Shown here: piece after piece, positions 3,956 through 60,759 of the stretch
Layout: every line of letters starts with the position of its first letter
How positions within the stretch are numbered: the first letter of the stretch is position 1
DNA from: Raillietiella orientalis
Lineage: Eukaryota
Assembly (NCBI GenBank): GCA_036172245.1
Contig: JAYWIR010000024.1
Span: 558,001-622,000 of the forward strand
Reading direction: 5' to 3'
DNA: 64,000 nt
Notes under the pieces: model-generated
What the model was told of the DNA's origin: nothing
The model's database searches: none
The model's input: only the letters and a program-made list of their open reading frames with translations
Program-made: the position numbers and the translations under genes

Positions 3956-3959
3956 CCCT

Positions 3960-5599: not shown

Positions 5600-5828
5600 T
5601 GCGAAGGGAACTCATTCCTTACTCTCCCCGGAGAGACTGCCCGCAGGGGGCCACCCGTTGCTTGGCGTCGGTCGTTTCCGTTCCTTCGCACCTGCAAAAG
5701 TGTGGTGCGACGCGCGCAGGCTGCAGCCACACCGCCGCCAACGCAAGCTGAAGCAAAAGGGTGGTGAGGTTTGAACCCGCACCCACGATTTCCGCGTCGC
5801 GTGCACGAGCCAAACCACCACCGTCAAT
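5600..5828 (-). mobile_element. tRNA-derived SINE-like relic: two tandem tRNA-like units plus a short body match
   Basis: Unit 1 has B-box GGTTCAAACC (5768-5777). Unit 2 GTTGGCGGCGGTGTGGCTGCAG matches the heads at 41119, 53369 and 57392. CAGTCTCTCCGGGGAGAGTAAGGAA matches 57897 onward. Confidence 0.55.
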
Positions 5829-6054
5829 GTGTACTTACAAGTTGCGTGCGCGCCCCCTTATATGGCTCGCGCAACGCTCTTTCCGCACTGCGAACGGGGC
5901 GCGTGAGTCTTTCGACCAAAGGAACAACAAGGTGACTCATTCATCGCCTCCGGCCGGAACCCCATCGGGGAGAGTTCTGCCAGGTCGAACCGCAACGAAA
6001 AGAACGGCGGCCAACCGCCTCACATGCAAAAATCCGTTCCGCTACCTGCAGTCC

Positions 6055-17200: not shown

Positions 17201-17524
17201 TCAACGTAGCAGTGAGGTTGGTGCGAGGACGAAAGTCACGTTCTGATAATGCATGTCATCCGTTGATTTGATTGCGCTTCCCTAGTGTTTCAAAATTAAA
17301 TTCACATTACCATTTACTCGTTCAAAATTTTCATTAATGCACCTCTGTCACGAGTATTTTTAATGAAAGGACTGCCACTAAATTAAATGCTACACTTGGA
17401 GTGTACTTACTTCTTCCACAGAGAACGAAAATGTCCTTTGATTTGTTAATACCTAAAATTCCTACCTGTCCAGTCCTACCTGCGCTCCTGCTGGCTCTTC
17501 GCGCGTTTATTAATATCAGTTTCA

Positions 17525-21372: not shown

Positions 21373-21565
21373 TCACAGAGTTGTTGTGACCACTGAATGC
21401 ACACCGTGGACCAGAACTGTCGGGGGAAGACCATCTGACAGTAAGGACAGCATGGAAACGTATTTCTCCGCAACGACGGCTTCCTTGCAGCCACCAGGAG
21501 GGACGGGAAGCTTCAAAAAGACGACAGCCGTGTTTTCACCGTGCTTTCTAATCATCGCGTTGATT
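21373..21565 (-). CDS. SLC12A9: SLC12A9 terminal exon 15 ([23 protein letters not shown]...[18 protein letters not shown])
   Basis: ttccag| acceptor; SLC12A9-type C-terminus; TGA stop. Confidence 0.93.
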
Positions 21566-35897: not shown

Positions 35898-36819
35898 CTT
35901 GTTTGTAAACAGTCAATCACAAACACTAATAACGTGGATGATGACACATGGATGTTTGCGTTCCATTTAGGCTGTGCTTTGAAAAGATCACTCCACTACT
36001 GCTCAAATAGATGTCCATGCACTTGGAAACAGCAGAGCTAAACTGCACCTGTTTCGCCCCGAGTGCACGTAAAAGCAATTAACTTAGGCTTATGATAATT
36101 CAGGTTTACAGATAGGCTTATGGGTCATAAACTTAATCTTCCATTATGTACGTTTAAGATTCTCATTGTATGAGTAACGAAATCAGTTTCATGCACTGCC
36201 TATCTGCCAATTTTTGACCATCATGCTCTCTACATGTTAACTAGATACAATGCTCTTCGAGAGCTTCCCACGGGCAGCCAGACTGCATGAGTTGGACGGG
36301 TTTGTTTGTTTGTTTGTTTTTTGAGAAAGTATTTTCTGTAGAAAGATCGATTTTGGAACAACGAATGTTCACGAATTCGATTCCCAGTTGACCGTGGTTT
36401 TCCCTTTTTAACCGTTACGCATAAAATGCCAACCTCAGCAACAGAAATCGAAAACAGCGCTTGTTTTCATCCTAGGGATGGCCTGACGAGAAAAATTTCT
36501 CTCGAGGGGAATCGCTTTAAGGGAGAACTGCAAAGGGGATGTACGAAAACGATAATTCACGACGAACTCAATCATATCTGCCGCCCTGCATGGAAGTTAA
36601 CGATCTCGTGCCCAAATGTGCAGCTTCCTCTTTGTCTGTGCCGTTTTTTGTTTACGAGCGAACAAAAAATCACCTCCGGATCGCTGTTTCAAGTGACCGC
36701 TTCTAAAATACTTCAGTACTTTTTAAATAAACGAACCCTTAATCACAATTTGCCCTCGTTTACGAATAAAGTTCGTTGTAAGAACCAAGGTGAATTCCGG
36801 GCCACCATTGGATTCAGGA

Positions 36820-40989: not shown

Positions 40990-41670
40990 TCCGAAAGGGA
41001 AAGGTAGTTCTCGGCAATGGTGAAGGAGGAAAATAAGGAGCCAGTTCAGTCACAAGAGGCTTTCCAGACCAGATTGTGGGAAGCCGCAGTTCCTTGAGCC
41101 ACCAGAAATACAGCCTGAGTTGGCGGACGCATGGCTGCGATCTCCTCACGTGGTACCACGTGCTGCGGGTTTGAATCACTCCCGGGGAAGGACCCATGCT
41201 GGGGGGTGCGTCGTGTGTTTCGAGTTCCCCCCCCTCCCCCCCTGCAGGATGATGCTAGCCGACCAATAGGCCTCCGGCGTCATCCTGAGGTGCGGGACTC
41301 CAGTCTCGGGTGCGGTACCAGTGGAAGCCGGATGCCCCCCGGTGACTGGCTGGGATTGGAAGTTGACCCTCCGGGTCCTTCCAGGAATCAAGGAGCCGTC
41401 TCCCCTTGAGCCCTTCGGTTGAGGTGCCCTGCGGTTGTGCAAATAGATCCTCCCCCCGCCTCGGGGGGCACCCTTCATCGGGTACAATGGAGTGGGTTGA
41501 TACCCCCTTCAGAGAGGTTGCCTCTCCAGGGTGTAAGAAGCGCTCTGCTCCCTTCAAGAGGTGGACCCTCTAGAGGAAATCGGAAGCGTCTCTTTGGGGC
41601 TCTCTTCAGAGGAGGAAACAAGGAGCGGATCCTTTGCGGGTTCTCTTCGGTCGAGAAATCCAGGAGCGCC
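40990..41670 (+). mobile_element. tRNA-headed SINE-like unit joined to LINE copy H
   Basis: GTTGGCGGACGCATGGCTGCG...GGTTTGAATC head; about 500-bp body homologous to 57460-57880. Confidence 0.6.
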
Positions 41671-43095
41671 TTGTAGAGCAGTGAAAGCTCCCGAGTCCAG
41701 CTGAAGGAGTTGCGTGCTTCGCATCGGGACGGCGGTCTCGACCTCCTAGAGCTGGAGCGGATGGTCATCCAGCTGCAACGGAGAACGATGGACATCGCTG
41801 AGAAGTACGGAAGTGCCCTTGGTGTGTTCCTGCGCGTCCCCTCGCCAGCCACCGTGTATCTCACACGGAAGACTTGTCACCTGCCTTTTGTGCTCCGGCC
41901 GGAAGGTGAGAAGATGCAGTCTCCTTCTCGGACGCATGTCCAGCTTGGAGAACGACTGGATGGTCTGTTGCCTCGCCAACTCCAGCGCCTGACTGGAAGA
42001 AACAGCTGGCGTATGGGCGGAGTTGAGCGAGCCCAGCTCAGAAGAATGGAACTGTCTGCGACTCGGCATCTGCACCCGATGTTCGCTGCGGAAGATCCTC
42101 GAGGATTCCAGCATGAACTCATGGGCGGAGCAGACCCCCTCGCGGCATCGATGTCCTCCCTGAAGAGGGCACTTGGCAGCAGCCAAACGCCGAGATGGGA
42201 TGTCTCCTGCGAGATCACAGACAGGAAGAAGTTGATCAATGGATGGACCATGGGGCAGCTGGCGGATGCTGCGACCCCGAATGCCTTTCTACGAGGATTA
42301 CAGTGCTGAGGCGAGCTGCTCGGAATTCTTACTGGAGATCTGGAGTGGCCCCCAGTGCTCAAGAACAGCAATGCCCTCCCTCTGGAGTGGCGGGAGTTGG
42401 CACTTCTGCTATTGCTCTGGGGTTTTCCCTGCAACGCACGCCGACACCACGGGACGCTGGGGAGAGAGAACCCGGACTGTCGCTGGCACGGGGAACGGGA
42501 ATTCCTCCCGCACCTGCTTGTGGACTGTGTTGCCCGCCCCCTATGGAACGTTTCGGAACGACCTTCCGAGTCCTAGTTGGCAACCCGATCCGGAGCTGCT
42601 GTTGGCAACCCGCAGGAAGAGAAGTCGGAAAACATCTCCTCTTCATGTAGAACTCTTTGCAGTCAGCCGCAGCCTTAGCAGTGCTTTGCTGCATCCGCGG
42701 AATTGCGGCAGCCTGGAGAGAAGCCGCTGAAGGAAGAAACGGGAGGGACACCCTCCAGTCTGCAGTTCGCTTTCTGAAGATAGGGGCCAGATGGTTCCAC
42801 CTCGGACTTATCCGGACAGAATTTGCCAGCATCCTGAACAGGATGCCGAGGATGCCTGGCAGCGTACCATGATCCCTTCCTCGATTTCACTCCTTCCAGT
42901 GTATAATTTCTTCTCCCCCGTTTTGTTTGTTTATTTTTTGTTCTTGTTTTCCCTTCCTCCACGCTGTCAAAGCGGACCTCGCCTGTCACTGGCCACTGGT
43001 CCTCAACAGGTTCAATGCGCGTGGGGTAGAACCGACGGTTCTACCACATGTATTTTTATTACCCAAGTAATAAATGCCCCTGCATAACCGGGTGA
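41670..43095 (+). mobile_element. LINE copy H, 3' part
   Basis: SRVQLKELRASHRDGGLDL, LPLEWRELALLLLLWGFPCNARRHH, VLCCIRGIAAAW; AATAAA...CCGGGTGA end. Confidence 0.88.
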
Positions 43096-44236
43096 TAATT
43101 ATTCCAGAAAAGCGTGTCTCTCAGTACACAGAATTTATGGCAGAATCTGTTCTCACTCGAAGAGGAAGAATGAAACGGATGGTAGCGTAGACTGATAGAG
43201 GATTGGCTGACTTGCATCAGTAAGTAACAGCAGACGTTGTGTTCGGGATTTCTTTGAAAGCAACCAGACCTCACAAATATGGCACCACTTGGGAGTATTC
43301 AGCAAAAAGGTCTACATGATCTGATGTATGACTCTTGCAAGCACGCGCTAAATCCGTAGCACCTCACAAAAGATACGATGACGGTTCCAGGCGAAGACTG
43401 CATTGCGGCATCTCCCTCGCCCTCGGGACCACGACTTTTACTTGTTAATGAACTGCTGACGATTATGGTTCCTCTGGGTGGTACAACTGATCCTCTTGCT
43501 TCGAGATGCTGCTCAGAAGGAGGAGGAATGCGATCGTTTAAGGAAGGAGTAGCCTGTGTCTCGAGAATGAATTCGGTGGCTTCCTCGTCAACAGCTCCAG
43601 TGCGATGCAGCTGCATGCGTTTCCCCTTGCATATCCTGAGAAGACTCGGAAATCTTTCCTTGAATACCTCTCCGTGAGTCTGTGTTAATTCCAGTGATGC
43701 GGCCTCACGAACAGTATCAATAGCCAAAACAAACTGCAGAGCAGTTTGTGTGCATCTTTGCTTGGAAATCATGATGCCTGCGGCAGCAGGGCATGCAATA
43801 ATTTCATTCATTACAGTTCTTTCCATGAAAACTGTTATGTTGCGGTGCAGAATAAATGGCAGAGCCAGAGCTGGAAAGATAAAAAGGAAAAGAAACATTG
43901 GAACCTTCCGCTTTCCCTCCCACTCTCAGAAGAAACCCAAGCCAGGCGCCCACGCCGTCGATCGCAATCCGTCGCCCACAGGGACCCGGACGAACGGCGA
44001 TGCTATCGGAGCACTGGAAAATCGCGAGAACGCTGCCGGTGTCATCCAATGCAGCAGGGACAAACCTACTAGGCGCAGGGGTGCTGGAAGACCTTCCCGA
44101 GAGTTTTGCGAGTGTCCGGGAGGCGACGAGACACCTTTTTAAAATGCTATTACCGATGCAGACACGGGTGTTGATTGAGACATGCGTACGGAGAGACATG
44201 TACTGTACAGAGACGTTTTCAAGCTGCGCGCGAATT

Positions 44237-45800
44237 AACCTGCCCCTGGTCTGAGTGCGCAACCATCTCCACCTGCATCACTCTCCGGTAATGATGAATA
44301 CTGTTCCAGGGCGTTTATTTTTATTCTTATTTTTTACAAAAAAAGCAACCAGGAGTCGTTGGGGTTTCTCATCCCACCAAGTCCGAACATCCACTGGGGG
44401 CGCTGCCGAGGTCCACAACATCAGGAGGGGTTGAGGGATTGGAGAAAAAGAAGAACAGTCTGGAAAAATGGGGGAGGGGAAGGGAAGGGTTCACATCTTG
44501 AGAATTGCGGTTCCCTGCATCCTTTGCAGGCGAGCTCCTCTTAATAGCTGTGCAGGTGGTTCGGCCTCGCCGTGGTCCAATGGAACTGGATGGAGAAGAG
44601 AGTGGTGGAACACCTCTGTCACGCCGTCCTATCTCGGCGCCGTTCCTGGAGGCGAAGGCTCCGCGTAGGCAGCACAGCACTGCGACGGCGGCAGTTGGCG
44701 ACAGGCATTCCGCACAAAGAGGTTCCTCAAGATGTTTAGTGAGTTGTCCACTGGGGAAGGGAGGGACTCGGAGAAACGCTACCACAGTGCCCAGAGGGCA
44801 GCGCATCTCACTAGCAGGGAGATGGGGGGGAGGGGGAAGTCTTGTTCTCCTTGCACCTAGCACAGTTGATGCTGACACTCCCCCTCGTCTGGTGGTGGCG
44901 GCGCACGCTGCACGAGAGTGCCCCATGCAACGCCGGCAGCGCCGACTGCTGCCACGATCCATCTGCGGGGGGCGAAGATTCCGGGAGAAGACGCAGAATC
45001 GCCCGAAGAAGGCTTCGTAGGTCCAGCAATGCCCTCTTGCTGCAGCTCTGTCATCTCTTCAGGACAGCCAAGACAGTCAGCAGCCTTCAAGATGGAAAAT
45101 AAACTGCGAGATCGCAGAAAAAAAGAAGCCATTGGGATGCTGGAAGGCGCGTCAGCTGGCTGACGCTTCCATCCTCGCCACACTACTCAAACCTCCTCCA
45201 AGTCCCACCCATTTGGAAGAGGTGCAGTCCACCCGGGGTTTTTGGACACCTCCCTCCTTCTCTCGAAGTGGCAAGACTCCCGTATTTGGCCTTCACCACT
45301 GAACCAGGGGAGGGGTGGGACCCGAACCGTGGCAACTGAGACGGAAGGGGGAATCTCCCTCCCTATACCTGCTTTCCTTTGCGTACGTCCCCACGCAGAG
45401 CGTTCGGGAACGTTGGACCGCTTCCCCGGACTCACCGAGAGATGATGCGAGAAGCGTGCCGAGAGGCCTCTTCGCTCGCAACGGAGTCGCTTGCGGCGAC
45501 GATCGCAGCCTTGTGCTGCTCAGGCGGCGTCGTGGTGGCGGAAAGCTAGCTACGACGTCCACGGAGGCCGGACGAACAGACACGCCTTTCCGTTGGCGAT
45601 CTCCGTTTCGAGAATGGCCGAGAGATGGTCACATGTCTCTCGGCAGAAGAAGGAATGCGCCGTCATCCTGCAAAAGGTGTAGAGGACGCGGGAAATTGCA
45701 GTGCGACCCCGTCCCTTGCCCTTCCAGCATTTGTTGTTGGATATTCACTTATTTTTGTTTCTCTCCCTTTCTTCTCACTTCTCCGCATGTGAAGATATTC
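44237..45800. repeat. Donor locus of the 1.19-kb duplication; the plus-sense LINE fragment continues to the ORF2 C-terminus
   Basis: 44237-45425 matches 13165-14351; 45430-45780 continues AALCCSGGVV..ECAVILQKV* and a T-rich UTR. Confidence 0.85.
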
Positions 45801-46449
45801 CGGCAAACTGACCCTGAGCAGGGACTCGCTCCGGAAATTGTCCTCCCTCTGCCGAATAACGGCTTTTTCTTTTCATCTCCGTTGCTTGTATTGTGAACAC
45901 TGCTGTGAAAGAATGCTGTGAACATCCTTTTGCAACAAACGCCCCGGTGTGACCTGCTGAAAATACACGCGACGGCTGCTGAGATGTTTATTGGCGCAGA
46001 GAGCCAAGCGGCGCGCAGGTAGTGCAACAAAGTGGGCAGGAGGCATTGGCCATTGCAGTGGCTCCAGAAGCAGCCCCTGGTTGGCGCAGCCGAAAGGTTG
46101 CGTTGGTTGGCAACGGCTGCCGGGACACTCGACTTGTCCTTTCCGATGCAGGTCACCTTTCTGTGGCCAGACGGCGCTGCGGTGGGCAGCCGAGCCACAC
46201 AAACTGAAGTATTTTGCGGCGCCCTTACGGTTCAGCTGAAAGGTGCAGGACTGCGCCCAGAGGAAGTTCGTCTCCATGCTTCCAGTAGTAAACCTCCTGA
46301 ACTCTGACCCGCCCCTGAGGCGGCTTTCAAGTTTGCACCGGATTTTTTCCTGTTCTTTCTGGTCGCCAAATCGATCGAATCACCCGAGCGAACCAGAAGA
46401 TTGAAAAGTTCCAGAAGTTATAAGACTGGTAACTGCCTGTAGAGACAGC

Positions 46450-49400
46450 ATGAAGGCCTTCCTTCTCCTCATGACGAGGAATCACGGAATCTTGGGATTT
46501 CGCCTTCTGTTGCCTCGTAATCGCCCAAAGAGTCCTGGGCACACTCCAGAAACAGTGGGGAGCGAGAAGGGAGTGGAATTGCCTGCAGCGCGGAAGAGGA
46601 GCCGAAACTTTAAGCTGTGGAGGTCGACGCGGCTGACCCACGAGGCCACACCAGGGTACGTTGCGCAAAGTCCTCTACCAGGGAGCGTCGGGATCTACTG
46701 GGAAGATTTCGAGGATGCCGGCGCCTCCACCCTCCATCTCCGCGTCACGAGCACGCCGCCATCTTGTTGATGCAGATCCGGGAGCCCCTCCCCGGAGAGG
46801 GTTGCGTCACCACGCTACAACAGGAGTGGAGGATCCCAAAGGAATATCCCTACAGAGCAGTCATGGACGCCCTCCCGCGCTCGTGAGCTTCGGGGATGCA
46901 CAGGACACTGAGGCAAGGCCGGACCCGCATCATGGGGATCGCTCCAACCGTGACCTCTCCCCAGAAACCACTAGGCGGAGGCTCCTCGCGTAGGGTCCAC
47001 GCCAGCGGGCGATACCTGGACCGGTGGTGCTGCCGTCGCAGCTCGCGTGAAGATGGACGAGGTCCAGCTGAGCGCTCGAGGCCGCGTTCGAGACGAGAGG
47101 GCACACAGCCGGCGACCTCCTGCCTGGTCCGAGTCCTTCCTGAACGAACAGGGCGGGCTGCCCCTGTCGGCAAGGTGCGCGGCGGAAAGCCCGTCCTTCT
47201 CGAACTTTTCGGTGACCCTGCCGAGAGCAGACGCGTGCCAGAACTCCCGTACTCCTCGAGGAGCTTCCCCCATCGGAACGGGAGGGAGAGACAAGGCTGG
47301 ACTTGCATCGTGGGTCCTCCTTAGGACCCACTAGATGGAAGGCCTTTTCCTGTCGCACCGACTGTTCAGCCACCTCGTGCCACCTGCAAGAACAGCGGCA
47401 GCCCCAGCACGGAAGGCTGGGACGGGTCAAAGGGAAGTCCGTCGAGTCGGTTGCCGACGCACTATCCCCTTCCTTCCACGCGTCTCCGACTGACGCAGGA
47501 GTCACCCCCTTCCTCTCCCTCTTCGAGCATCGGGATCACCGAGCTGTCTGGTCAGGGTCCCTGCCACGCGGAGCCACCTGCTCGCCGCTCCCTTCGCCGT
47601 GCGGGAGACTTCCCTTTGCCGCTGCGCGCCTCTAGGGACGGACCTTTGGTGGGTCCTGCTGGAGGTCGCCGCTTCACGGCAGAGTCACTGCGCGCTTCCG
47701 CTGTCGAAGGGAATGAGCAGAGGGATGGACTTCTGCCGCTCCTGGCCGATCCCTCGGCGCACGCGCGGGGAGGAGGAAGCTCGAACGTCTATCTGGAAGG
47801 ATGACCCGCTCTTCTCTTCGCCCCGGGACAGCGTACTTCTGTCCACCCTCCTGGTGCAAACCGGAAACAACGCGGGGACGGTGAGGTTGGCACTCGCGAG
47901 TCAGCAACTCCAGCCGGCGGGGTGATCCCGCTTTCCCGAGGTCACCTACCGCGGCGAAAGACGGGAGACTGCAGGGGCGCCTCTACCTCCTGGTCCTAGC
48001 GTTCTCCAGATCCCACTGCAGTCGCTACCGAGAAGGCACATGAGACACAGGGGGACCCGGAAAGCGGAGAGGCAAGACGTCACCGGGAGACCGCATCCGA
48101 AGGGTCCGTGGCGCCTTCCTTTCCTTTCCGACAGGCCCGGAGCTTCCGCGTCCCAGGAGGGACGCTCGCAAGAACTCGGCAGTCTTGACAGGGAAGAAGG
48201 CATACCTTCCGGCTGCAGAGGGAGGGTCCGTTCGCGGAAGCAGGCAGGCGTGGGTTCAGAGGACGAGAGAAGCAAGGGCAGGATGCCACGCGAGGCACAT
48301 CGCTAAGTCCCGCTGCCCTGCTTTTGCACCAAGAGTTCCGCCAGAAGCAACACTTCCATCCCAGCTGAGAAGAAGGGATAGCTGCAGCACTTGCTGGAAT
48401 CTTCGAACTCTGGGAAATCACCTCCTTCTCAAAGCTATCTCCGCAGCCTGAGCGCGCCCTCCCCCGGACGGCCACCTGGGCGTCTTCCTCGCTCAGCCAG
48501 TCAGCGAGCTTTCCTCGGCGTCATCAAGACGTGGTTGCGCGCTCTTGCATTCCCCCGCTACCCCGCCATCTTCATCCCGTCCTCCTCCCCCTAGGTCCGC
48601 TCACTATGGTCCACCCACCCTCCTGATTGGAAGAGTCTCTCTTTCACCGACCGACGGCGCTTGAGAGCGTTCGTCAGGAAAGAGATTCCCCGGTCGGTCT
48701 CCGATGTCTGTCCCCACCCTCCTGTGACAACAACCGGTCAAGAGGACAACTTTCCTAAGTCTGCGGTTTGGTTCCAGGAGCGATCTCCCGGAAGGGGTAG
48801 GCATGCAGCGCGCACGCAGAGGACCTCGCGCGCGCTCCGGTCAGCAGAGGCCAGGCACTGATGATGCTGCCACCCTGGTGGCAACGGAGTGCACATCCCG
48901 CTCCTAGACTACATCTAGCAGGGATTCCGCTCTTGTGAATGGCTGGACATCTCGAGGCGTGCTCTTCCCTTTCCCTCTCCTCCTTCCGGGGATGGGAGAT
49001 CACGAATCCTTCTCTTCCTTACCTGTTGTCTAGGCTGCGGGAGGCCTTGCAGGCCAAGACGGGGACGAGAGATGGCGGTTTGTCCGACTGGCCTTGGGCG
49101 AGTGTGCACCATCAGAGCAGGTCTCGCCTGCTTAGATCAGGGGGGCCGATCGACCTGAGCGCGCCCCTGGGTCATAAAAAAAACCTCTGCCTCCTCCTCT
49201 TCCTTCCTGCTTCACTCTCTCTCCGCTCAAGAGCCAGAGGACGGCGCCTGCGCTCCGGTGAGGGAGATGGGCCTAGGGAGGTTTGTTGCCCGCAGGAGGA
49301 CAGAGGAAGGAGAAAACCAGGGAGAGCTGCCCACACAGATCCAGCCTACCTGGAAGCGAGAACCAACCTCTGAAGCAGCGCTGCAGGAGCCACCGTTCCG

Positions 49401-49830
49401 CCATCTTGGAGTTATTTCGAGGATGAGCGCACGGAAGCGCCTTGAGAACCTCAGCGCCGCGTAGGGGCGCCTTCTTCGAACGTCCCCAGAAAACCCCGCA
49501 TGTCTCCGGATGCGGATTGCAGAACCCATTGCTTTCTTCCCTCAGTGCATGCTCGCCACCGTGCCAAGAGAGCAAGAATCTCTCCTTCTTCCCCCGTAAT
49601 CGCACCTCTCTCGCCTTCCCTTTCTCCTTTCCCTTCCTCCCCCAGCCCAAGCTCCGAGGGACGAACGTCGGATCGTCCCAAGCTCTTGCGACATCCGAAC
49701 CGGAGCAACGCTGAGAAAGGAGGGATCTACCCGGGCCTTCCTCCAAGGGATCGCTCGAAAAATGGGTTCGCCGGAGTCCCCTACGAATGCCCCATCAGGA
49801 AGAGGTAGCCCGGCGCAGCGCTCTTTTCTT
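46450..49830 (+). mobile_element. LINE 5' part relic (ORF1, APE, linker to RT start)
   Basis: CWNLRTLGN (48382-48420), SR-LDYI (about 48895), PI-QEEVAR (about 49790); ORF1-like DSVLLSTLLVQ also seen near 62825. Confidence 0.55.
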
Positions 49831-49999
49831 CCACCGGTGCTCAGGCTCTCCCAGCCGAGACGCTGCCAGGAGTCTCACTCTGGCCGGGTTTCGCGGTCGC
49901 CCTCTCAGACTGCCCGAGGGTGAGGTCGCTTCTGCAGCGGCGCGCGACAAGACTGGCGGGTCACCCGGGAGAACGGAAGTAAGCAGTGTGGCCGGGCGT

Positions 50000-52170
50000 C
50001 CACCCTCCTGGGGTCCCCACCCTGTAGGGCTCCTTAACCCTTCCGGGAACACCGCCTCCTTGTCGCGAAGGCAGGCGGCGGCCCGAATTCGTCGGGTGCC
50101 CTGCTGCCGCCGGCTGCTTCCAAGAGGTCAGCGGCTTCCCAGGCTCCCCTGCGCTCGAAGACACGCCCGGTGGTGACCCCGAGGCGCAGATCGCTCATCG
50201 AAAGAGGACGACGGGTGCGGGGAGGAGGAAGGAGGGAACCGTCCAGTCGCCTCGCCTCCCTCGGGGAACCGGGTGCTCTCGTAGGGACAGAAGGGAAAGG
50301 GGAGAGACGCGACCCGCCCCCTTCCTGAACTCCGGGCGGGTGCGGATCCTGGCTCACCACGGGCATCCTCCTCAGAGGAGACAACTCTTTCGGACGAGCT
50401 GCGAAGCCTCGGGTGGTCGAGGCGCGCCCGACTGCGCTCTCCCGGTAGCCACGGGCAGCAGGGCAGGTGGCACGACCGGTGGCAGTCGGGCTCCGCCTCC
50501 CAATGGAGCGACCGCGGCACGTGTGCGCCCCCGCGCTCTTCCGGAAAGGGCCGTTCATGCCGGTTCGCGCGCGGGACTTCCCGACGTCGCGGAACGGCGC
50601 CGGGAAGTCCCGTCGCGTGTCTGCGGGCGAGGGGAGGACGGCAACCAGAGTTTTCGCCTCCGCCGTCGGCACGGATCGTGGCTCCCAAAGGGAATCTTTC
50701 GGGGAGGGGCAACTCACAAAGCGCCTAGTGCGCACCTTTCCCCCTTTCCCCTTGGTGGATGTCCCCGGAAGCCTGTCCGGTAGACCCAGAGAGAATTTCC
50801 AAGAGAGAGGTCACAGAAGTCGGAGGAAAGCTGACGGCGACGCGTTTCCGCGCTCTCCTGCTGGCGGGTTGCCAAGTCCGCAAGATCCGCGAGAGAGGGC
50901 GCGACTGCATCCTGGGTGTGGAGGAGGAGGAGGTCTGTGGTCAGCTCCGCTCTACCGTTCTTGAGCGGCGGCGTTGCCGCGAGACGGGTCCCTCCTGGCG
51001 TGGCTCGTCTCTCCGCACGAAGGCGGCTCGCGCCTTTACGGAAGCGGAAGTGGATTGCGCCTCGAAAGACGGACGGAAGCCCCACCGCCGGCTTCCGGAC
51101 AGCTTCCCGGATGTGCTGTTCTTCTTCGAGCCACTGGATCGTCTCCAAGAGACCTGATGCTCCGGAGGCAGAAAGTGGGGAGGAGAGAGGTGTTCTTGCA
51201 GCCATCAGCCATCCTGACTTTGACCTTGGACCGCTCCCCTCCTCCTCGCGCTTCCGGGAGGAAAGGTGGCGTCTCGCGGTGCGCCGCCGCCAATGGACAT
51301 CCGGGCGGCTCCTCACGCTGGGAAGAGCATGAACCGAGTGCGCGGGAGGTGCTCGGGTGCGGATAGGGTTTTTCTGGCGTACCCTCGGCCATTGCAGCGA
51401 ATCTAGTTCGATGACCGGTAGGCATCATGAAGTGGCAGCATCCCGGATCGGACAGGCCGCCCGAAAACCGGCGTCTACCGGAAGGTCCTGACCGTACTCG
51501 GGGCTCTGAGACGAGGGTCGCGCTATCGCACCAAGCCGCAGAGGGATGGGCCTTCGAGGACTCCGCAGCAGCCACGGAGGATCCGGGAATCTCGTGGCTC
51601 CGACTGCTGCTGTCCTTCCAACTGGCCAGACCACATTCGGAGGGATCCACCTAGGGAAAGGTGAGGGGCCGAAGGTGAAGAGGAACAAAGGAGAGGAGAG
51701 TCGGGACACTCGCAGCGCCGAGGCTCTTCTGCCTGCTCGAAGTTAGGCAGACGCTGCGCCTGCGCGAAGATGCTCCAAGAAGATCGAGGGAAGAAACGCC
51801 ATCCTCTGCGTCTTCTGTGCGCCCAGGGAATCACTTCCGGCGCCAAGTCGCAGCCTCCGACAGCCTGACCGTGTTCTCGTCCAAGGACCCGTCGTGGGAA
51901 TGGGCAGCCGCCCCTCTTTCCCTGGAGTCGACCGGGAGTCTCTATCCTACCGGTTGACCTGGATAGCACGAGGATCTCCTCTGAAGAGAACATAGAAGGG
52001 ACGCTTCCCAATTTTCCCTGAAGGGTCGCTCCCGAAGGAAGCAGCGCGCTTCTTGCACTCTGGAGAAGCAACCTCCCGAGGAGGGTATCAACCAGGTCCA
52101 TAGTATCCGATGGTATCCTCCCCCCCCCCCCCCTCCCCGAGGGTTCGGGAGGCTCCATTTTCACGACCGG
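50000..52170 (-). mobile_element. LINE ORF1-like relic
   Basis: GSVPSMFSSEEILVLSRSTGRIE (RRM-like) and AQAQRLPNFEQ (eroded knuckle); GC-rich and frameshifted. Confidence 0.35.
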
Positions 52171-52372
52171 ACGAGAATCGCGAAAGGAACTGAATTCTTA
52201 ATTCCTGGAAGAATTCCGGAGGGTCAACTTCCAATCCCATCCAGTTAACGGAGGCATCCGGTTTCCAGCTCTCACCAGTGCTGCACCCGAAGTCTACAGG
52301 CCAGCCAGCTTCATCTCGCGGGGGAACTCGAAACTCACTACATCCTCCGTTCTCAGAGTCGATGTTTTATTT

Positions 52373-53260
52373 TCACCCGGTCGTTTATTGTAGCAAAAAA
52401 AAAATAATACAGAAAAAACGGTCACATAAAATATAAAAAGATTTCTTCCTTTGTGGTGGTTTCGCAGCAGCAGCAGTGCGAAGGGAAATGCTTCGGAGGC
52501 GCTGCTTCTCGTGAGCAGCTCCCCCGGTGAGGTCCACACGGGAGAAATGGGGAAAGGGGTAAAAGAAAAACAAAAGTCTAGTGTATTGGGGTGGGGAAGG
52601 GGAAGTCAGGGATCACAAATTTCTTCCTGGAGTCCTCAGCATCCTCTAGAGGATGTGGGCAAGTTCCTCCTTCCGCTGGCAGAGATGCGGTCATTTTGTC
52701 GCCTTCCCCATGAAGGAGCAGGCGATTGGGATGACCTCTCCGTTCGGCGCGGCTTCTCGCCGCCACGATTCCACAAAAGCAGCAGTGCACAAGGCCGCAA
52801 GGGAAGCTGAAAGCGGCATCCAGTCGCGCGCGAAGAGGCACCGCAAGACCTCTCTGCTGTTGCCCACCGAGAGTGGGAGGGCCTCAGCGAAGCGTTCCCG
52901 GACACCCAGGAGGGCAGCACCATAATCCAAAACAGGGGCGGGAAAATGTTCTGTTCCCCGCACTTGGTACAGTCCGGGGCCTCGTCCACTGGTGGACTCT
53001 TGGGTTGCATGGGATCGACCAGAGCAACAACTGCAATGCCGAGTTCCGCCACTTCAGGGGAAGCATGTGGCTGCCCACAAACACTGGGAGAGTCTCTGCC
53101 CCTGCTAAGAGAATGTCCATAAGCTCCGCCTAGCGAAGAATACCTATGGGGAGGATGGAGGGGATGCATGGTGCAACCAGTTGACGAGCCGTCCAGCATC
53201 CCAGCTGCTTCTTCTTTCTCGCGATCTCGAAGCATACTTCCCATCCTGCGAGGCCATCAC
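52373..53260 (-). mobile_element. LINE copy I, 3' part
   Basis: GWEVCFEIARKKKQLGCWTARQL, LPLKWRNSALQLLLWSIPCNPRVHQWT; AATAAACGACCGGGTGAAAAT end. Confidence 0.85.
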
Positions 53261-53299
53261 TATGCCCACTTTGTGCTGAGCGTGTCTGCAACGTAGATC

Positions 53300-53369
53300 C
53301 ACCACGTAGGGATTCGAACCCACAACCCTCGGTGCCACGCGCGGAGAGCGCAACCACGCGGCTGCCAGC
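53300..53369 (-). mobile_element. tRNA-like SINE head directly upstream of LINE copy I
   Basis: GCTGGCAGCCGCGTGGTTGCG...CGTGGCACCGAG...GGTTCGAATCC. Confidence 0.65.
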
Positions 53370-53479
53370 GCGGGCGGGAAGACTACTCGAAGGAGACCAC
53401 TTCGTTCCAAAGCGCAGCGGACCGGACGCACCTGACCTTCTTCATCCCATCTGTGAGCTGATAAGGAGAAGGATCTGGC

Positions 53480-53900
53480 TAAGACGCAAATGGGCATAAC
53501 CCAGAAAACCCGGAGAAGGGGCCGGAAGATGTGGAAACGCCTAGAGGCAATGCTTCGGCACTCGCTCTGCAGCATCTGGAGCTCCGGAAGCCACGAAGAA
53601 GGAGGGTTCGGCGGAAGTGGCAGGGCGCGCTCAGACACCGAGAAAAGGAGCGTCCTCGACGCTGGCCCATAGGAGAACAAGCGAAGCACCTGGAGAAGGG
53701 AGATGATGGTACCTCCCAGCATCTGACGCTCTTGCGACTCGTCCTGCAAGCATCCGTGGCAGCGACGAGCAAGGCATCCCCGAGAGTCCCAGCCTCCTCC
53801 TTCCAACGACCGGGAGGAGGAGACAACCTCGCCTCGCGTTCGCGGAGCGGTCATTCTCGGCGGCAGCGATCCTCGACGGCACGGTCGGGAGCCACGTGAC
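53480..53900 (+). mobile_element. LINE APE-RT linker relic
   Basis: KWQGALRHREK...IGEQAKHL resembles the L1 GA..RSR......GE..T..F linker. Confidence 0.35.
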
Positions 53901-54179
53901 AGGTCGGAACCGGACCGACGAGCCACGCGCGGGGATCACGAAGCAGGAAGAGGTCGAGAAGATGCGTGGGAACACCTCTTTCCCCATCCCGTTCCCCCCA
54001 TCCTTCTCGCGGCGAACTTGAAAAACGAAATCCTGCTGCTTTGCTGCCGCCGTCGGCGAGCTGGGCGAATACTCGACAGGCGCGCGCACGATTCCTGCAG
54101 GCCATCTCACTGTAGCGAGGCTTTGTCGGATGCTGGGGATCCTGCCGTTCGAAACCTCCTTCCCAATGACCGGAGCACA

Positions 54180-54430
54180 ATCGCTCTTCGCCTCCGCCTC
54201 CTCTTCCTCCTCCTCATCGTCGTCGTCGTCATCGTTATCATAGTAGTCGTAGTCGTAGTTGTAGTCATCATCGTGATCCTCATTGGCGTCAGCGTCAGTG
54301 TCGTACTGGTAGTAGTCGTCATCGCGATTATCATCGTCGTCGTTTTGTTGTCATCAGTGTCATCGTCATCAGCGTCGTCGTCGTAGTCGTAGTCGTAGTC
54401 ATTATCGTCATCATCGTCGCCGTCGCCATC
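54180..54430. repeat. Degenerate trinucleotide repeat (GTC/ATC/GTA)n
   Basis: Visible period-3 low complexity. Confidence 0.9.
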
Positions 54431-55422
54431 CCATCTTCAGTTTGCAAAGGTTCCTCGGAAGCTCTCTTCCTCTCTAAGCAACGCGAATTGCACGTGCGAG
54501 TGACGTAACGCCATCGCCGATGGAGACGACCGGGGAGGCATCGGAATTTCCGCCCTGAAGCGGCCACCGGACGCATATCTCTCGCGCGCGTTTCCGGTCT
54601 TTCTCCTGCAAGGTTACTTCCCTCCCCATTACTCCCGCTCCCAGCACGAGGTGGAAGATCGGTAGCTTTCCAGCTCGTCCCGTGTGGGTACGGAAGCGCG
54701 CACGAAGCATCCGGCCGTTCCGGGTCCACCAGGAAAGAAGGAGCAGGAGGCCTCCGGAAGGATCGTGCGTCCCTGCATCCCGCCTGAGAGTCGACGGCGG
54801 TAGCCGCTCTTCCTCGGTGGCGGGTTCGCTCTCGGAGAGTAGGAGCAGCACCCCGCAAAGATCCCGCTCATCCCTGAGCGCAAAAAGATGTCCCCAAGAA
54901 CCAGTCTCCGTGGAGTAAGCAGAGTGTAAATCCCCCTCCTCCCCTTCCCGGAGCATCTCTTCTCCCACCCCTTTCCACGGAGATACTGCGCACAGCAGTG
55001 GTTCTGTCCCGCGGCAGCGACCACTTCTAGTGAGAGCGACGTGCCCAGCAAAAGGTGCCAACCGCTGCTTCCTCTCCAGCGAGAAACGGGGAACCGGCCA
55101 GGGAGGATGGAAGGGGTTTGACCCAGGTGACGATAGGAAGTCGCCGTCGCGAACTCGTGGCGAGACGAGTGGCGGGATTTCCATCTGCTCCTTGCACGAG
55201 GAGCGGAGGCATTCTTCCCTCGTTCGTCTCCCCCTCCGGACGGCGAGGTCCACCCGGCTCCATACCCCCTGCCCCCCCGCGTATGAAGGGACCCTCCGTA
55301 AGGTAAGGGGCGTTAGTCCGAGAGCGACCTTCTGGCTGACCCGGCAAGAGAACTGGCGGGGCAGCGGAAAAGCGTGACCGTACTTTTCGAACTCGTCTTT
55401 TCGATTCGGAACGCTTCCGCCG

Positions 55423-55444
55423 GCGCGCGCGCGCGCGCGCGCGC
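55423..55444. repeat. (GC)11 microsatellite
   Basis: Perfect alternating GC run. Confidence 0.95.
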
Positions 55445-56624
55445 CGCCGTAATGAATTCCACGCCACCTCCGTGACCCGCCCGCTGACCTCAGTACGAGC
55501 GACTTCTCACGTCGATAATCGGGAGCTACCGAACACGTCCGCGCCTCGGGGGGAGAAACCTCTCAGCTGCTGAACGCTCAAGCGCTGCACGCACCTCACC
55601 AATGCGTCCTGGAAGGGCAAACTTGATTCGCTCTTCGGTCGCTCCGTTACCGCGAGGAAGGGTAGCTTGCCCTTCCCAGAGGCTTCCTCAGAGCTCCAGC
55701 ACCTCGAAGGAGAGACGCAGAAACGGGTACGCGCCCTCTCGAGCTTTTCAACACGCCCTCTGGAACCACCAAAGCGTTCAGAGAGTCCCGGAGAAATTCC
55801 CAGGTTCAGGAGAAGGCGATCCTCCGAGACTCTCCCACAGAAAGGGAATTCAAGCCGTGTGGACGCTGGCCGCTCGCCCTTAAAGGCGGTTCGGAAGGCG
55901 CCCCAGAGATGCAGCGATGAGGCCGCATCACGCCTATAGCGAGCAGGGCCCTTCTACCGCCACTCACCTGGGGTGTCCTGGGAAGCGGAAAGAGGAGACC
56001 CTCGGCTCCCCGACAGCCGGAGCGACCTGCTCTGTAACGTCACCTTGCAGGAGCTGGCTGCTTGTGAGCCCCGTGCAGAGACGCTGCGGCCTACACGGCC
56101 GCTGCCAGCGCGGAAATTCCCATGGTGAGCAAAGGGAGAAGGCGTGGCGCGCGCGCATGCGTCACCGTGCGAACTCGCACTGCCCTCCGGTGGAAATCCC
56201 AACCCACAGGTCGTGTCTCTTGGAAACAAAGGGAGATGGATGACCTGTGTGGGCCCCTTTCTCTTCCTTCGCCGTCATGGCTTCCTTGGGAAATGGCTGC
56301 TTTTCCTTGAGATAATCGATTTCGGTCCACTGGCGTCGCATTATGCAAGCCGACCATCCTTGATCATTCCGCCTTACAGGAAGATGCCCGCGGGAAATTC
56401 TCACCCGGTATGCCCTGTCTCCCGAAGATTCCAACATTCCGCCCAGCCTAGTCGTTTCCTCCTTCCTCATCGAGAACTCCATCTGTGAGACCTGCAGTTC
56501 TTCCAGACTTGCACTTCCCCGGGAGGAGAACTCGCTCATCTTCTCGAGACTCTCCCAGCTACTTCTGATGACTCGCTGCAGTGTGAGAGGATGTGGACCA
56601 AGCCACCCGGTGACCTCATCTAAG

Positions 56625-56782
56625 GGGAGGCTTCTTCCTCCTTTTTTCTCTTCTTCCTCCTTCCTCCTCACCCTTTTCCTCCTCCTCTTCCTCCCTTCCT
56701 CCTCCTTCCACCACTTTCCTTCCCCTAGTACTACTTTCCTCTTCCTCCTCCTCCTACTTCCCTCCTCCTCCCTTCCCACTTC
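56625..56782. repeat. Polypyrimidine (CTC/CTT)n tract
   Basis: Visible low complexity. Confidence 0.85.
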
Positions 56783-57229
56783 GTCCAAGCAGCCCAAGGA
56801 ACTGAAGTACCGATCAAACTTGATTAGACCCGCTGGCTGCGGAAGCGGACCAACCATCCCACAGAGCTCCCTGGAGGCATCGAAACCTCCACGTCGTTCG
56901 CCGGACGCTCGAAACCTGCCCATCGCAGAAGGATTCCATCCGCCGCACTCTGCCATCCCGGGTTGTCTTTTCCAACGCCGGCTAGCAGCTCTTCACTCTC
57001 TGAAACTCAGCAAGTTCCCCTCCGCGGCGAACTCACCGAGGAAGGAGCAATTTCTCCCCCTCCTCTCCCCCCCTGGAAGGAGGTTCCGCCATCCTTCCCG
57101 TCTCGACCTCTGGTAACTCCAAAAGAGAGAGTGATCGTCACGCCTTTGGGCAAAGGTCGAACGCAAATGCACCTCTGAGCGACTACCGGTCTCGAAGCGC
57201 TGCCATACTTCGGGTGACCTCGCGCCTCT

Positions 57230-58180
57230 CCCGAAAGGGAACCTCTCTCTCCGCGTGCCCGATGCGCACCCTCAGAGGAACTGCGTACCTCGGTCTCGCG
57301 ACCGAGGAGCAGATGGTGCAAGTGGAATCCTCCCCCGATCTTGTCAGCGTCGAAGAGCCGCGCGGTTCATCCGAGATTCTGGATCTTCGCAGTTGGCGGC
57401 CATGTGGTTGCAGTCTCCGCTCGTGGCACCGAGAGCTGAGGGTTCGAATCCCCGCGTGGAGGATCGACGACGAGAATGGGTGTGTATGTCGTGGGTTCGG
57501 AGTTCCACCGACTGATTACCCTGATTGGCCTGTAGGCTTTGGGTGCGGCACTAGGGGAAGCCGGATATTGTCCCCATTGACTGATCACGATTGGAAGTTC
57601 ACCTTCCGGGGTCCCTCCAGGACATCAAGGAGCCGTTCCCCTTCAGTTGGGAAAAAACGGAGCCACCCTCTCGAAGAAAGGGACCCTCTCCATCGCGTAC
57701 CATGGAGCTGTTTGATACTCCCCATCGGTGGGTTACCTCTCCAGAGTGTGGAAGCACGATACTCCCTTCGGGCGCGACCCTTTAGGGAAAACTGGCAAGC
57801 GTTCATTCGGGCTTCTCTTCAGAGGAGGAAAGAAGTAGCGAATCCCTTACGGGTTCCCTCCGGAGAAGAAATTCAGGAACGGCTTTCACAAACCGGACAG
57901 TCCTTCCGGAGAGAATAAGGAAGAGGCTCTCTTCAGGGTTCCCTCCCGAGTGAGAGGAACGGACGTTTCTCCAAAACCTTTCCTGGATATCTAGGGTGGT
58001 TCCTCCTGGTTTTACTTCCTAACTTGAAGAGTTAACACGCACTTCCCGGTGGCGTGGAACAGCCTTCAAGATTTTCGTGGCCACCCCCCTAAAGAGTCGA
58101 ACGGTTCTTCAGCACCCCATGGCAACCAAAAAGAAAAAATCTGGAGGGAAAGCAGCGAAAGCGGAAGAATCCCCAAAAAG
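57230..58180 (+). mobile_element. Dimeric tRNA-headed SINE-like unit (longest copy) joined to LINE copy J
   Basis: Unit 1 A-box TGGTGCAAGTGG 57314 and GGTTCATCC; unit 2 with perfect B-box GGTTCGAATCC 57441-57451; body matches 41190-41670. Confidence 0.65.
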
Positions 58181-58189
58181 GATTCCCAT

Positions 58190-59655
58190 GATCCTAGGGC
58201 ATCCTAGACTTTTTGTTTGTTCCGCCCCTCCCGACATCAAGGGAAGGACCGAGGAGAAAGAAAAAGGGCTTCTTAGAAAATCCCTGTGGGTCCAGAGTCC
58301 AACTCAAAGACTCGTGTGCTCCGCGTAAGGATGGTGGACTGGGCCTCCTTACGATGGAGAGGATGGAGCATTCAGCTCCCATTCGGAAGACTCGCCCTCG
58401 TGGCGAGATTATGGACCACACACTAACGCGTCTCCTCGCGAAGAGTGCAACCGACCGCGAGGTACTCGCATCCCTCCTCGTCGCTCGCGAGAGATTACTG
58501 AGGTGTTGCGGACGTCTCTCATTCCGCCAGGTTGTTGTCCTGGTGAAGAGGAACACCCGGATCTCTGCCTCCCCACAAACTGCACTGCCTGGCTCCAGGA
58601 GTCGGTCTTCGCCTGAGGGAGGATCCACGGCGCGAGCGAGGCGCTGTGGTGCGCCAGTCTGCAGCGGGGCGTCAATACTCTCAAGTCGATTGAGGAGATC
58701 GTCCTCAACCCACAGAAGATACGGTGGGCCTCGTCTACTCCCTTGCCCAGTGCTCCTCTCCCTGAGCGACGCAAGGGACAGCATAATCCTGGCAAGGTTG
58801 GAAGTGACGTGATGCATAGCAGCAAAACAAAACTCTTGAGGGTGTGGACAACTCGGGAGGTGATGGACGCTGCAACCCCGAGTGTCCCACCCCACGGAAT
58901 TGTACTCTGGATAGAGCTGTTCGATATCCCTCCAGAGGAGGTAAGGTAACCCCCAGCGTGCTGGAACAGTAGCACCCTCCCCCTCAAGTGGCAGGACTTG
59001 GCGTTGTTGGTCTTGCATTGGGAAATTCCGTGCAAAGCGCGCCTTAACCACTGGACACGGGGAGCACGGACACTAACTGCGACACATGCGAGAAGAAGGA
59101 GATCCTCCTGCACCTGCTGTTAGACTGTGCTGCTTCTGACCCCGTTGGAATCGCCTCGTGCCGATCATAGGAACCCCGGCCGGAGGCCCAGGGACATTTT
59201 CAGACACCTCTTCGCGCGTGCCGCTCCGCCGCCGCCAGCCGCTTTCCTAGCAGTTCTCTTCTGCGTCCACGGAATCATAGCAGCCTGGAACGCCAGAAGA
59301 GGCCGGAATAACAGAGACGCCACTCACCTGGCACGGATCTTCTTGAAGAGCGCCTCGAGATGGTCTTCATCTGGGCGAGACACGAACGGAACTTGCCAGC
59401 ATCCTGAACAGGATGCTGGCAGCATGCCGTGATCCCTTCTTCGATTCCCCCCCTCTCCGTGTACAATTTCTCCTCCTCTGTTTTGTTTGTAATTTTTTTG
59501 GTTTTTATGTTCCCTTCCCCCACGCTGCCGGAGCGGACCTCGCCGGTCTGAGCATCGGCATTCGGCGGTTCATTGTGTGTGGTAGAATCAACAACTCGAC
59601 CACGCAGATGCATTTTTATTGCTTCATGTAATTAATGCCCTGGCATAACCAAGGG
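58190..59655 (+). mobile_element. LINE copy J, 3' part
   Basis: LFVCSAP..GLLRKSLW, SRVQLKDSCAPRKDGGLGLLTMERM, LPLKWQD, VLFCVHGIIAAW; conserved 3' UTR. Confidence 0.88.
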
Positions 59656-60759
59656 ATCATCATATCATCATCCTTGCGCATTCTGCTGCAACAGCAACCC
59701 TAGCTACCACTCTTCGCGTGGTGAGAACTTTCGCGAAACGAAAAGAGTCTGGTCCTCGTGTAAGAGAGGAGGGAGAGGCGCACGAGAATGGGAAAACGAG
59801 GGCAGCATCTTGTTCTGCCCCAACCAATCTCCCCAGCGGGCAGAAGTTCCAAAGACCCACCAAAGGTTCGCCTCAAAGGAACCAGATGCGCTCCTTCAGA
59901 TCTGTCTCCGAAGGGTCTTCCCGAAAGGAACACCGGAAGTTCCCTCGAGACGATTCTTTCGCCCGACGCTGCGTTCTGTTTGACCTGCGCTTTGGGCGTG
60001 CTGAACGGAAGCTGAGCTCCCTCCGGCGCGCTGAAGAGGACGGTCGAATGTTTGCTCTCTGCCACGTCGCTCTGCTCGAGAGAACGCGGACGTCGGCGGC
60101 ATTGGAACCGCTGGCCGAAACCATGGTAACCGCATACTCGCTGGTGTTGAGCGCAAACAAAAGTCGAGGTTTTCCCAGAGATCGCGAGGTGCACTGCGGT
60201 GTCCCACAGATCTGCTGACGTCACTTCTCCCGTCGAGCGACACCAGCAGGGAGTGAGAGGAAGAGCAGCAAAGTCCCGCCTGAGCGCCTGGCAGCTTGGC
60301 TGCTGGTTCCAAACTCTTACGTCCTTCTTACGTCCCGTCCACGCCTGGCCGTGACCTCGGGACGAGCGTCAGAAGGCCATGAGACTCGACGAGAATTCAG
60401 GACGCCTCCGGCCCAGATGCCCGGCTGACACTTCTCCGTCGCCTCCTTCGGAGAAGTCCCCTTCGAGCTCCATCTCTTCACCGGAACGTCGGGAAAGAGG
60501 ACCGGTTTGCGTCCATGTCGAAAGGCGAGCCATCTGCTGCTGCTGCCGCTGCTGCTTCGCCGATAGACTTGCGTGTCTGTTCGGAAGAAGCGTAATTCGC
60601 CAGAAACCTGAAGCGGAGCTTCGAAATCCTCCACTCTCCCTCCTTACCTTCCCCAATAGCAAGCAGCCGGCGAACTTCGTGTCTTCCGAGGCACTCAGGG
60701 AACCAGAAAACGAACGACAAAATTGAAAGGAAAAAAAAGCTGAAAGGAGAGCAGCGGGA

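Follow-up and report, generated by a model that had tools for sequence, protein, structure and literature searches.

In crocodilians, Tx1-Mar long interspersed nuclear elements (LINEs) as well as SINEU short interspersed nuclear elements (SINEs) use another transposon, Mariner-N4_AMi, as their landing site, tandem SINEU-3 copies record successive entries at one duplicated target, and small-RNA heads have been described on Tx1 LINEs (Kojima 2015, PMC4494074). Composite elements made by template switching during LINE reverse transcription are reported as the WEIRD/Mg-SINE/MGL chimeras of Magnaporthe (PMC2104539) and as U6/L1 and Alu/L1 chimeras (bioRxiv 10.1101/2025.02.02.635956), and SINEs with LINE-derived tails or bodies are covered in a review (Kojima 2018, PMC5786205). 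Here, we analyzed a 64-kb window of the Raillietiella orientalis genome (contig JAYWIR010000024.1, positions 558,001 to 622,000 of the forward strand; all positions below count from the first base of this window), a stretch of GC-rich eukaryotic DNA crowded with decayed fragments of L1-like LINEs, in which copies of a non-coding SINE-like repeat of about 0.8 kb adjoin LINE fragments at three places. A previous sequence-only reading had proposed for these places a single element of about 2 kb, headed by a dimeric tRNA-like unit transcribed by RNA polymerase III (Pol III), with about 1.4 kb of LINE sequence serving as the tail.

Our results favor, with a probability of roughly 0.72, two separate kinds of old retroelement lying side by side, in which the LINE pieces arrived in separate events by ordinary nesting. 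As with Tx1-Mar in Kojima 2015, the LINE is L1/Tx1-like and sits 5'-truncated within copies of a second mobile element, its orientation fixed and a target duplication present. As for Tx1-Mar and SINEU, SINE and LINE copies stand one behind the other about a duplicated target, and heads resembling small RNAs are attached to LINE sequence. Unlike the system described there, the target here would be a SINE and not a DNA transposon, the LINE is classed as L1-like only, and the three junctions of the window fall at three positions.

Methods

The analysis covered this single window, in which every copy is about 30% diverged, so that short duplications lie near the detection limit. Fragments keeping the LINE 3' region were located with tblastn, together with a profile of the final ~0.95 kb of the LINE; P0001, also compared below, is a 619-aa relative from a protein collection (69% identical). 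Copies of the SINE-like repeat are called c41, c53, c57, and c5 after their positions at 41, 53/52, 57, and 5.7 kb, and LINE start positions are compared in the coordinates of L17, the LINE 3' fragment at 17338-19527(+). The multi-copy SINE profile misplaced the repeat fragment at 61 kb, and pairwise results were therefore used for that copy. Candidate target duplications were scored as flank pairs against 5000 random 25-mer pairs drawn from the window, and the counts given for them below are the random pairs that scored as high. The LINE tree included seven copies over their shared 3' ~0.95 kb; the groupings submitted to the approximately unbiased (AU) test were those of the sequence-only reading, and the free tree had already been seen before the AU run. 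Pfam was searched with the 185 stop-to-stop frames of at least 110 aa, where the matches above Pfam's own cut-off were a reverse transcriptase domain (RVT_1) in two frames and one SLC12 exon and nothing else, with no match in the SINE or its flanks.

Three contacts between the repeat and LINE fragments

Three of the repeat copies (c41, c53, and c57) are each in contact with the 3' part of an L1-like LINE that is truncated at its 5' end and lies on the same strand. At 53 kb, where the repeat lies on the minus strand, the order is a head with a perfect B box (53285..53382(-)) ending in ATCTACGTTGCAGA (53298-53285), about 0.9 kb of 5'-truncated LINE (52364..53284(-); tblastn, and profile 53266-52372, E 6.7e-188) ending in CCGGGTGA plus a tail of nine A-rich bases, then ATCGACTCTGAGA (52363-52351), and finally the repeat's body, which extends to 51976 (51976..52363(-); blastn and nhmmer against c41 and c57). 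The stretches with ATCTACGTTGCAGA and ATCGACTCTGAGA both align to the same 13 nt of c57, ATCGACGACGAGA, and the insertion site, ~72-85 nt from the start of the head, is uninterrupted in the alignment of c57, c41, and c5, that is, in three of the four heads. As the repeat is continuous across the LINE and both of its sides align to intact copies, the 53-kb arrangement shows that a LINE inserted into the repeat and duplicated 13 nt of its target. The sequence-only reading had rightly noticed the contact between this head and a LINE 3' part and had missed the resumption of the body at 52350-51976(-); a SINE body resuming after the LINE 3' end, here with its duplicated 13-nt target, is precisely the arrangement which that reading had held to be incompatible with its composite element.

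The 57-kb copy is apparently full length (57384..58174(+)); its head and body are followed by an A-rich tract reaching to 58139, and its 3' end falls within 58139-58186. The 5'-truncated LINE behind it (58206..59665(+); blastn 58208-59058 against 18043-18891, profile 58743-59658, and tblastn) begins at 58206, 66 nt past the A-rich tract, and runs for 1.46 kb to its terminus at ~59665. It is flanked exactly at both ends by a pair of 19-nt stretches, CATGATCCTAGGGCATCCT on the left (58187..58205(+)) and CATCATCCTTGCGCATTCT on the right (59666..59684(+)), which are identical at 15 of 19 positions and were equaled by 4/5000 random pairs, again 4/5000 when the test was repeated. Since this pair sits at the exact ends of the LINE, the LINE has a target duplication of its own, and its insertion behind the A-rich tract is well supported. 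A candidate duplication for SINE and LINE taken together, TCATCC..ATTCTG, lies directly 5' of the repeat and is like the downstream copy and unlike the middle copy (2401/5000). If the resulting triple target copy (57367, 58187, and 59666) is real, SINE and LINE could possibly have entered one site successively. No continuation of the SINE after this LINE was found by comparison with the tail of the 61-kb copy (212/300).

At 41 kb, the repeat (41101..41677(+), with a degenerate B box in its head; nhmmer against c57, profile 41101-41687) stops at the equivalent of 57890 and is fused straight to a 5'-truncated LINE 3' fragment (41665..43098(+); tblastn with P0001 aa 474-592 at 41692-42043, profile 42142-43098) within 41665-41689, where ~15 nt resemble, by eye, both the repeat and the LINE. 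A candidate duplication of the whole unit, CCAGAAAT / CCAGAAAA, stands at both outer ends (343/5000). When the missing SINE 3' part was sought by an alignment bound to the position after the LINE, the score was equaled in 55-78/1000 cases for 90 nt and in 645-725/1000 for 160 nt. For this copy, the odds are about even between a template-switch chimera and an insertion in which the target DNA downstream was lost.

Junctions and phylogeny of the LINE parts

Much of what had been described for the 41-kb and 57-kb copies holds: they share (E 5.7e-52) a body of about 500 nt that matches no LINE piece of the window, and both continue on the same strand into a LINE part that begins shortly 5' of the GGLGL motif and reaches the LINE terminus, at 43069-43095 and ~59665, respectively. 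The unit inferred from them does not hold, with junctions that differ between the copies, LINE tails of different lineages, and a duplication at 57 kb that encloses the LINE only. On the SINE side, the junctions lie at the 57890-equivalent for c41, at 58139 or beyond for c57, and at the ~57478-equivalent for c53, and the LINE parts start at ~18100-18125, 18035-18043, and ~18600 in L17 coordinates, respectively, placing the junctions of c41 and c57 ~250 nt apart in the SINE and ~60-90 nt apart in the LINE.

In the LINE tree, the LINE part of c41 groups with the SINE-free fragment L4 (4148-5095(+); support 96/98), that of c57 with the SINE-free fragments L8 (8546-7621(-)) and L17 (92/94), and that of c53 stands alone on a long branch. 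Over the shared LINE 3' ~0.95 kb, the AU test rejected a clade of c41 and c57 (p = 0.0058) as well as one of c41, c57, and c53 (p = 0.0018), and for the coding part alone the rejection of c41 with c57 was far stronger (p = 5.7e-11). The coding part of the c41 LINE is closest to L4 at 4.1-5.1 kb (68%), and its final ~300 nt (42790..43098(+)) are closest to 59383-59665 of the c57 LINE in partitioned identities and trees, where sliding identities between the two tails reach 85% in 42820-42940. This makes the c41 LINE tail a mosaic with a breakpoint near 42790-42820. Such a structure agrees with recombination, or with template jumping, among LINE RNAs and does not agree with a shared chimeric master.

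The SINE-like repeat

The repeat is non-coding and consists of a B-box head, a body of ~500 nt, and an A-rich 3' tract. Its copies are strong at 41, 57, and 53/52 kb, and the head at 5.7 kb is weak. The head at 57394-57469 is 83% identical to that at 53367-53292(-) (nhmmer E 6.4e-10), c41 aligns over ~560 nt (41116-41677) to 57389-57890 of c57 with nhmmer, and a third copy of the body was recovered at 52366-51976(-) (nhmmer E 1.9e-41). The c5 copy (5603..5752(-)) consists of a decayed head, 5752-5685(-), found by a profile built without it (E 3e-4), and of an even weaker match to a later part at 5643-5603 (profile E 0.16).

A B box (GGTTCGANNCC) occupies the same position in the heads, perfect in two of the four (GGTTCGAATCC at 57441-57451(+) and 53320-53310(-)) and degenerate in the other two, with GGTTTGAATCA at the aligned place of c41 (41168-41178). 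Matches with at most one mismatch are no rarer in the window than expected by chance (4 found, 1.48 expected), and the weight of this evidence comes therefore from the conserved position. The 5' end of the repeat lies a few bases ahead of GTTGGCGG, upstream of which the four-way alignment of the heads shows no conservation, and the stretches upstream of the heads found only themselves at E ≤ 10; the second A/B-box unit from which a dimeric head had been deduced is thus not conserved, and such a head is not confirmed. The recurrence of B-box heads at four places was confirmed, weakly at 5.7 kb, and their tRNA origin was not. The B box is their one tRNA-like feature: ARAGORN called no tRNA genes, Rfam gave no RNA family at the gathering score and, with E ≤ 10 allowed for the 57-kb and the 53-kb head, no tRNA (only chance-level matches, two on the former and one on the latter), and the heads show no cloverleaf and fold no better than shuffles (z 0.49, 0.42, and -0.20). 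Upstream of the 5.7-kb head, the stretch 5765-5832(-) contains a B-box-like GGTTCAAACC and, by eye, a GGTGGTG/CACCACC pairing (7/7) at the place of an acceptor stem; compared with shuffles, its fold is a little better (z -1.77), but it received no ARAGORN call and is not conserved in the other copies.

The 3' part of the repeat is missing from the sequence-only reading. The c57 copy extends ~250 nt past the point at which c41 stops, into the A-rich tract, and this A-rich 3' part (57970-58148) recurs without a LINE at 61137-60916(-) (nhmmer E 2.3e-7), within a LINE-free SINE 3' fragment at 60895..61144(-). From this continuation and its LINE-free recurrence, it follows that the repeat is an element of ~0.8 kb with a 3' end of its own. 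Both the 57-kb and the 61-kb copy, which retain the 3' part, have the A-rich tract, and the similarity of c57 to the 61-kb copy beyond this tract is not significant (182/1000 random segments). Thirteen nucleotides after the tract, the 61-kb copy ends in GCCCGTGGCAAGCCGGG (60911-60895), which matches perfectly the pattern of the LINE terminal hairpin, GCCCnnnGCAnnCCGGG, found three times in the window where 0.39 are expected; in the alignment test of this hairpin 15/5000 scored as high. No such hairpin was detectable at the c57 3' end (3799/5000), and it is accordingly present in one of the two copies keeping this end. The repeat could possibly carry a short LINE-like terminal hairpin as well, and if the hairpin does belong to it, the repeat would be a SINE of the ordinary kind, whose short tail was borrowed from this LINE. 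Beside this fragment, a weak inverted copy of the A-rich tail region was seen at 60684-60749(+) (two-copy profile, E 0.0073).

A metagenome scan with the SINE core motif returned a single locus (L001, 38% GC) without SINE homology at E ≤ 1, which was discarded as a chance match.

LINE fragments of the window

RVT_1 was found at 2996-3484(-) and 17338-17970(+). P0001 matches human L1 ORF2p at E ~1e-39 vs. 7e-17 for R2, and the GGLGL motif is present in the LINE translations; going by a reverse transcriptase closest to L1 ORF2p and by this GGLGL-type motif, the LINE can be assigned to the L1 superclade (L1/Tx1). As leads only, the ESM Atlas returned for P0001 reverse transcriptase clusters exclusively, with a Tx1-named cluster at rank 22 (score 0.88), and a 33%-identical relative carries PF03372. 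The window holds no full-length LINE 5' end, its longest copy reaching P0001 aa 5. The LINE 3' terminus reads AATAAATGCCCnnGCAnAwCCGGGTGA, followed by ~8 A/T-rich bases and no poly(A).

Nine independent fragments in the window keep the LINE 3' region (tblastn and profile), among them, besides those already named, L10 (9800-10654(+)) and a head-to-head pair that is present twice. The members of this pair, 44955-44303(-) and 45061-45961(+), have counterparts at 13885-13229(-) and 13991-14339(+): the segment 13145-14351 is duplicated at 44221-45425 over 1.2 kb with 97% identity, a duplication far younger than the remaining repeats. No flanking duplications were found for L8, the L3+L4 block, and L45, for which rough boundaries were used.

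The 5' ends of these fragments are clustered. Four of the nine lie within ~40 nt of each other (L17 ~18570-18611, ~0.95 kb from the 3' end; 4148, 8546-8559, 45030, and 53266-53284 in the window), two more (41665-41689 and 58206) lie within ~90 nt (L17 18035-18125), and the clusters span different lineages. They may mark a hot spot of truncation or template switching, or a nesting boundary. The antisense LINE at 2534-4070(-), which runs from P0001 aa 521 down to aa 5, adjoins the sense fragment 4148-5095(+); the two are possibly of the same lineage, as judged indirectly via the 41-kb copy, and their arrangement is reminiscent of twin priming, with an inversion and a gap of ~300 nt, or else of a nested insertion in antisense. 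A further terminus, GGCGTAyCCGGGTGGC at 5553-5577(+), is nearly identical to the LINE end at 5078-5095 (11/5000 random segments) and L4-like. It is situated 480 nt 3' of this LINE end, at a distance of ~25 nt to the opposite-strand c5 head, and may represent a short LINE fragment in tandem.

Probable separate arrivals and their alternatives

For the separate arrival of the LINE pieces, we propose the following events. The LINE side consists of 5'-truncated 3' fragments of L1-like LINEs of at least two lineages, which would not have been copied together with the repeat and would go back to three independent retrotransposition events. At 53 kb, a LINE nested ~80 nt into the repeat and duplicated a 13-nt target, and at 57 kb another very probably inserted 66 nt behind the A-rich tract, with its own 19-nt duplication. 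The direct fusion at the stretch of dual resemblance at 41 kb would derive either from an insertion that lost its target or from a jump of the reverse transcriptase from LINE RNA to SINE RNA.

Several observations weigh against this account. The two 13-nt target copies at 53 kb are too decayed to match one another above chance (2439/5000), and at 57 kb the candidate duplication around SINE and LINE together also scores above chance (98/5000, and 112/5000 on repetition), far weaker as it is than the 4/5000 of the LINE alone. At 41 kb, no SINE remainder is demonstrable after the LINE by local alignment (26/300 shuffles as good), the two-copy tail profile gave no match there, and a duplication of the LINE alone was not detectable (2359/5000). 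The LINE parts of c41 and c57 start within ~60-90 nt of each other, which is odd under random truncation, and their final ~300 nt are mutual closest relatives (75%, support 91/97), which implies that the tails of c41 and c57 did not originate entirely independently. Finally, the three junctions occupy three different positions of the SINE, and the window shows no fixed target site.

The same-strand contacts themselves could be explained by a landing preference of the LINEs for the repeat, which we consider slightly favored, the remainder being chance nesting. Three of the nine LINE 3' fragments adjoin the repeat, all on the same strand, in a window of which the repeat makes up ~3.5%; by our own naive binomial estimate, which disregards the clustering of repeats, such a count has a probability of ~7e-4. 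The criterion of Kojima 2015 asks that one target flank over 20% of the copies, a share that three of nine nominally exceeds, with several lineages involved. Insertions recurring at one nucleotide position of one target, as expected of a target-specific LINE (Tx1L or Tx1-Mar type), were not seen in the window: behind the B box, one of the four heads bears an insertion, and the other two contacts lie elsewhere. The sequence-only reading had kept, as a fallback, a LINE that lands in this repeat; this fits better than its main proposal, in particular for the 53-kb copy, and the three different junction positions of the window do not demonstrate site-specific targeting.

Pure chance, by which LINEs and SINEs simply accumulate in a repeat-rich stretch without any preference, is the alternative that survives best and one that we regard as doubtful. 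It is consistent with the three junction positions, with the different LINE lineages, with target duplications that by eye share no evident motif, and with the density of LINE debris in the window; it has to face the number and uniform strand of the contacts given above, as well as the LINE-type terminus at 5553-5577, which lies so close to the fourth head, on the opposite strand.

In a second alternative, which concerns mainly the 41-kb copy and appears unlikely as an account of the contacts, the reverse transcriptase would jump from the LINE RNA to a SINE transcript and copy it to the SINE 5' end, leaving a duplication around the whole unit. SINE/LINE chimeras and double jumps at preferred sites are reported in the Magnaporthe study (PMC2104539), and Alu/L1 chimeras in bioRxiv 10.1101/2025.02.02.635956. 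Like the composites described there, c41 is a small element complete at its 5' end, directly joined at a short similarity (~15 nt, by eye) to a LINE 3' part that is 5'-truncated and has the same orientation, with no demonstrable SINE remainder after the LINE, a candidate whole-unit duplication exactly at both of its ends, and a LINE tail that is a mosaic of two lineages, as a second template jump would yield. Unlike them, its duplication is not significant on its own (343/5000), and the other two copies do not fit: c53 has SINE on both sides of the LINE, and in c57 a 66-nt spacer separates the two and the duplication of the LINE alone is far stronger than that of the whole unit (4 vs. 98 of 5000).

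The long LINE-tailed SINE, a Pol III-driven family of ~2 kb copied as a unit with a tail made of 1.4 kb of LINE ORF2 end and 3' untranslated region, is very unlikely. The order of head, body, and LINE on one strand at 41 and 57 kb would agree with it, as would the proximity of the two LINE starts and the sister relationship of the final ~300 nt, and a ~400-nt deletion between short stretches that look similar by eye could turn a c57-like unit into c41. Yet the coding parts of the tails come from different lineages and are each nearer to copies free of SINE (AU p = 5.7e-11), a duplication belongs to the c57 LINE itself, the A-rich 3' part of the repeat occurs LINE-free as well, and the 53-kb LINE is nested in a repeat that continues on its far side. 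With the LINE-tailed SINEs of Kojima 2018, the repeat shares its succession of head, body, and 3' end and, in the 61-kb copy, a LINE-like hairpin of ~17 nt as the usual short shared tail; it differs from them in that the 1.4-kb LINE stretch lies outside the repeat, that the hairpin is found in one of the two copies keeping the 3' end, and that the partner would be L1-like and not of the RTE, Vingi, L2, or CR1 type. A bipartite LINE derivative, of a kind known from the same review (PMC5786205) and compatible with a window without a full-length LINE 5' end for comparison, is just as improbable given the repeat split by a LINE with target duplication at 53 kb, the 61-kb repeat with no LINE following, the A-rich 3' tract preceding the c57 LINE, the duplication belonging to that LINE itself, and the tails of different lineages.

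Alongside the separate arrival of the LINE pieces, there is a moderate hint of a LINE-SINE relationship. One tentative version is that the SINE-like repeat and the L1-like LINEs share their integration machinery and that the long-branched 53-kb lineage homes to a fixed site ~80 nt into its dependent SINE. Equally tentatively, the 61-kb hairpin, the possible triple target at 57 kb, the clustered LINE 5' ends, and the c41 mosaic might then be traces of such sharing and of frequent template jumping by the reverse transcriptase.

Other features of the window

A frame at 21376-21723(-) matches the C-terminal domain of SLC12 cation-chloride cotransporters in Pfam (E 1.8e-7) and is probably a host-gene exon. 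At 54201-54424, seven overlapping 66-nt units form direct repeats of GTC/ATC/GTA-type triplet-like composition, the minus strand of which would encode an acidic low-complexity stretch without a Pfam match. An AT-rich island (30-33% GC) occupies 30000-36000 amid DNA of 45-65% GC.

Conclusions

The analysis removes a false lead, as there is no long LINE-tailed SINE in the window, and repeat libraries should consequently annotate the ~0.8-kb repeat and the LINE separately. Among the papers listed, a literature search found no description of a SINE as a LINE landing target, which is weak evidence of novelty, and a SINE-targeted L1/Tx1-like LINE, if confirmed, would represent a target type that we did not find described. 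The 53-kb copy provides one clean case of an L1-like LINE nested in a SINE, and if the two kinds of element do share their integration machinery, same-strand SINE-LINE composites would be expected genome-wide.

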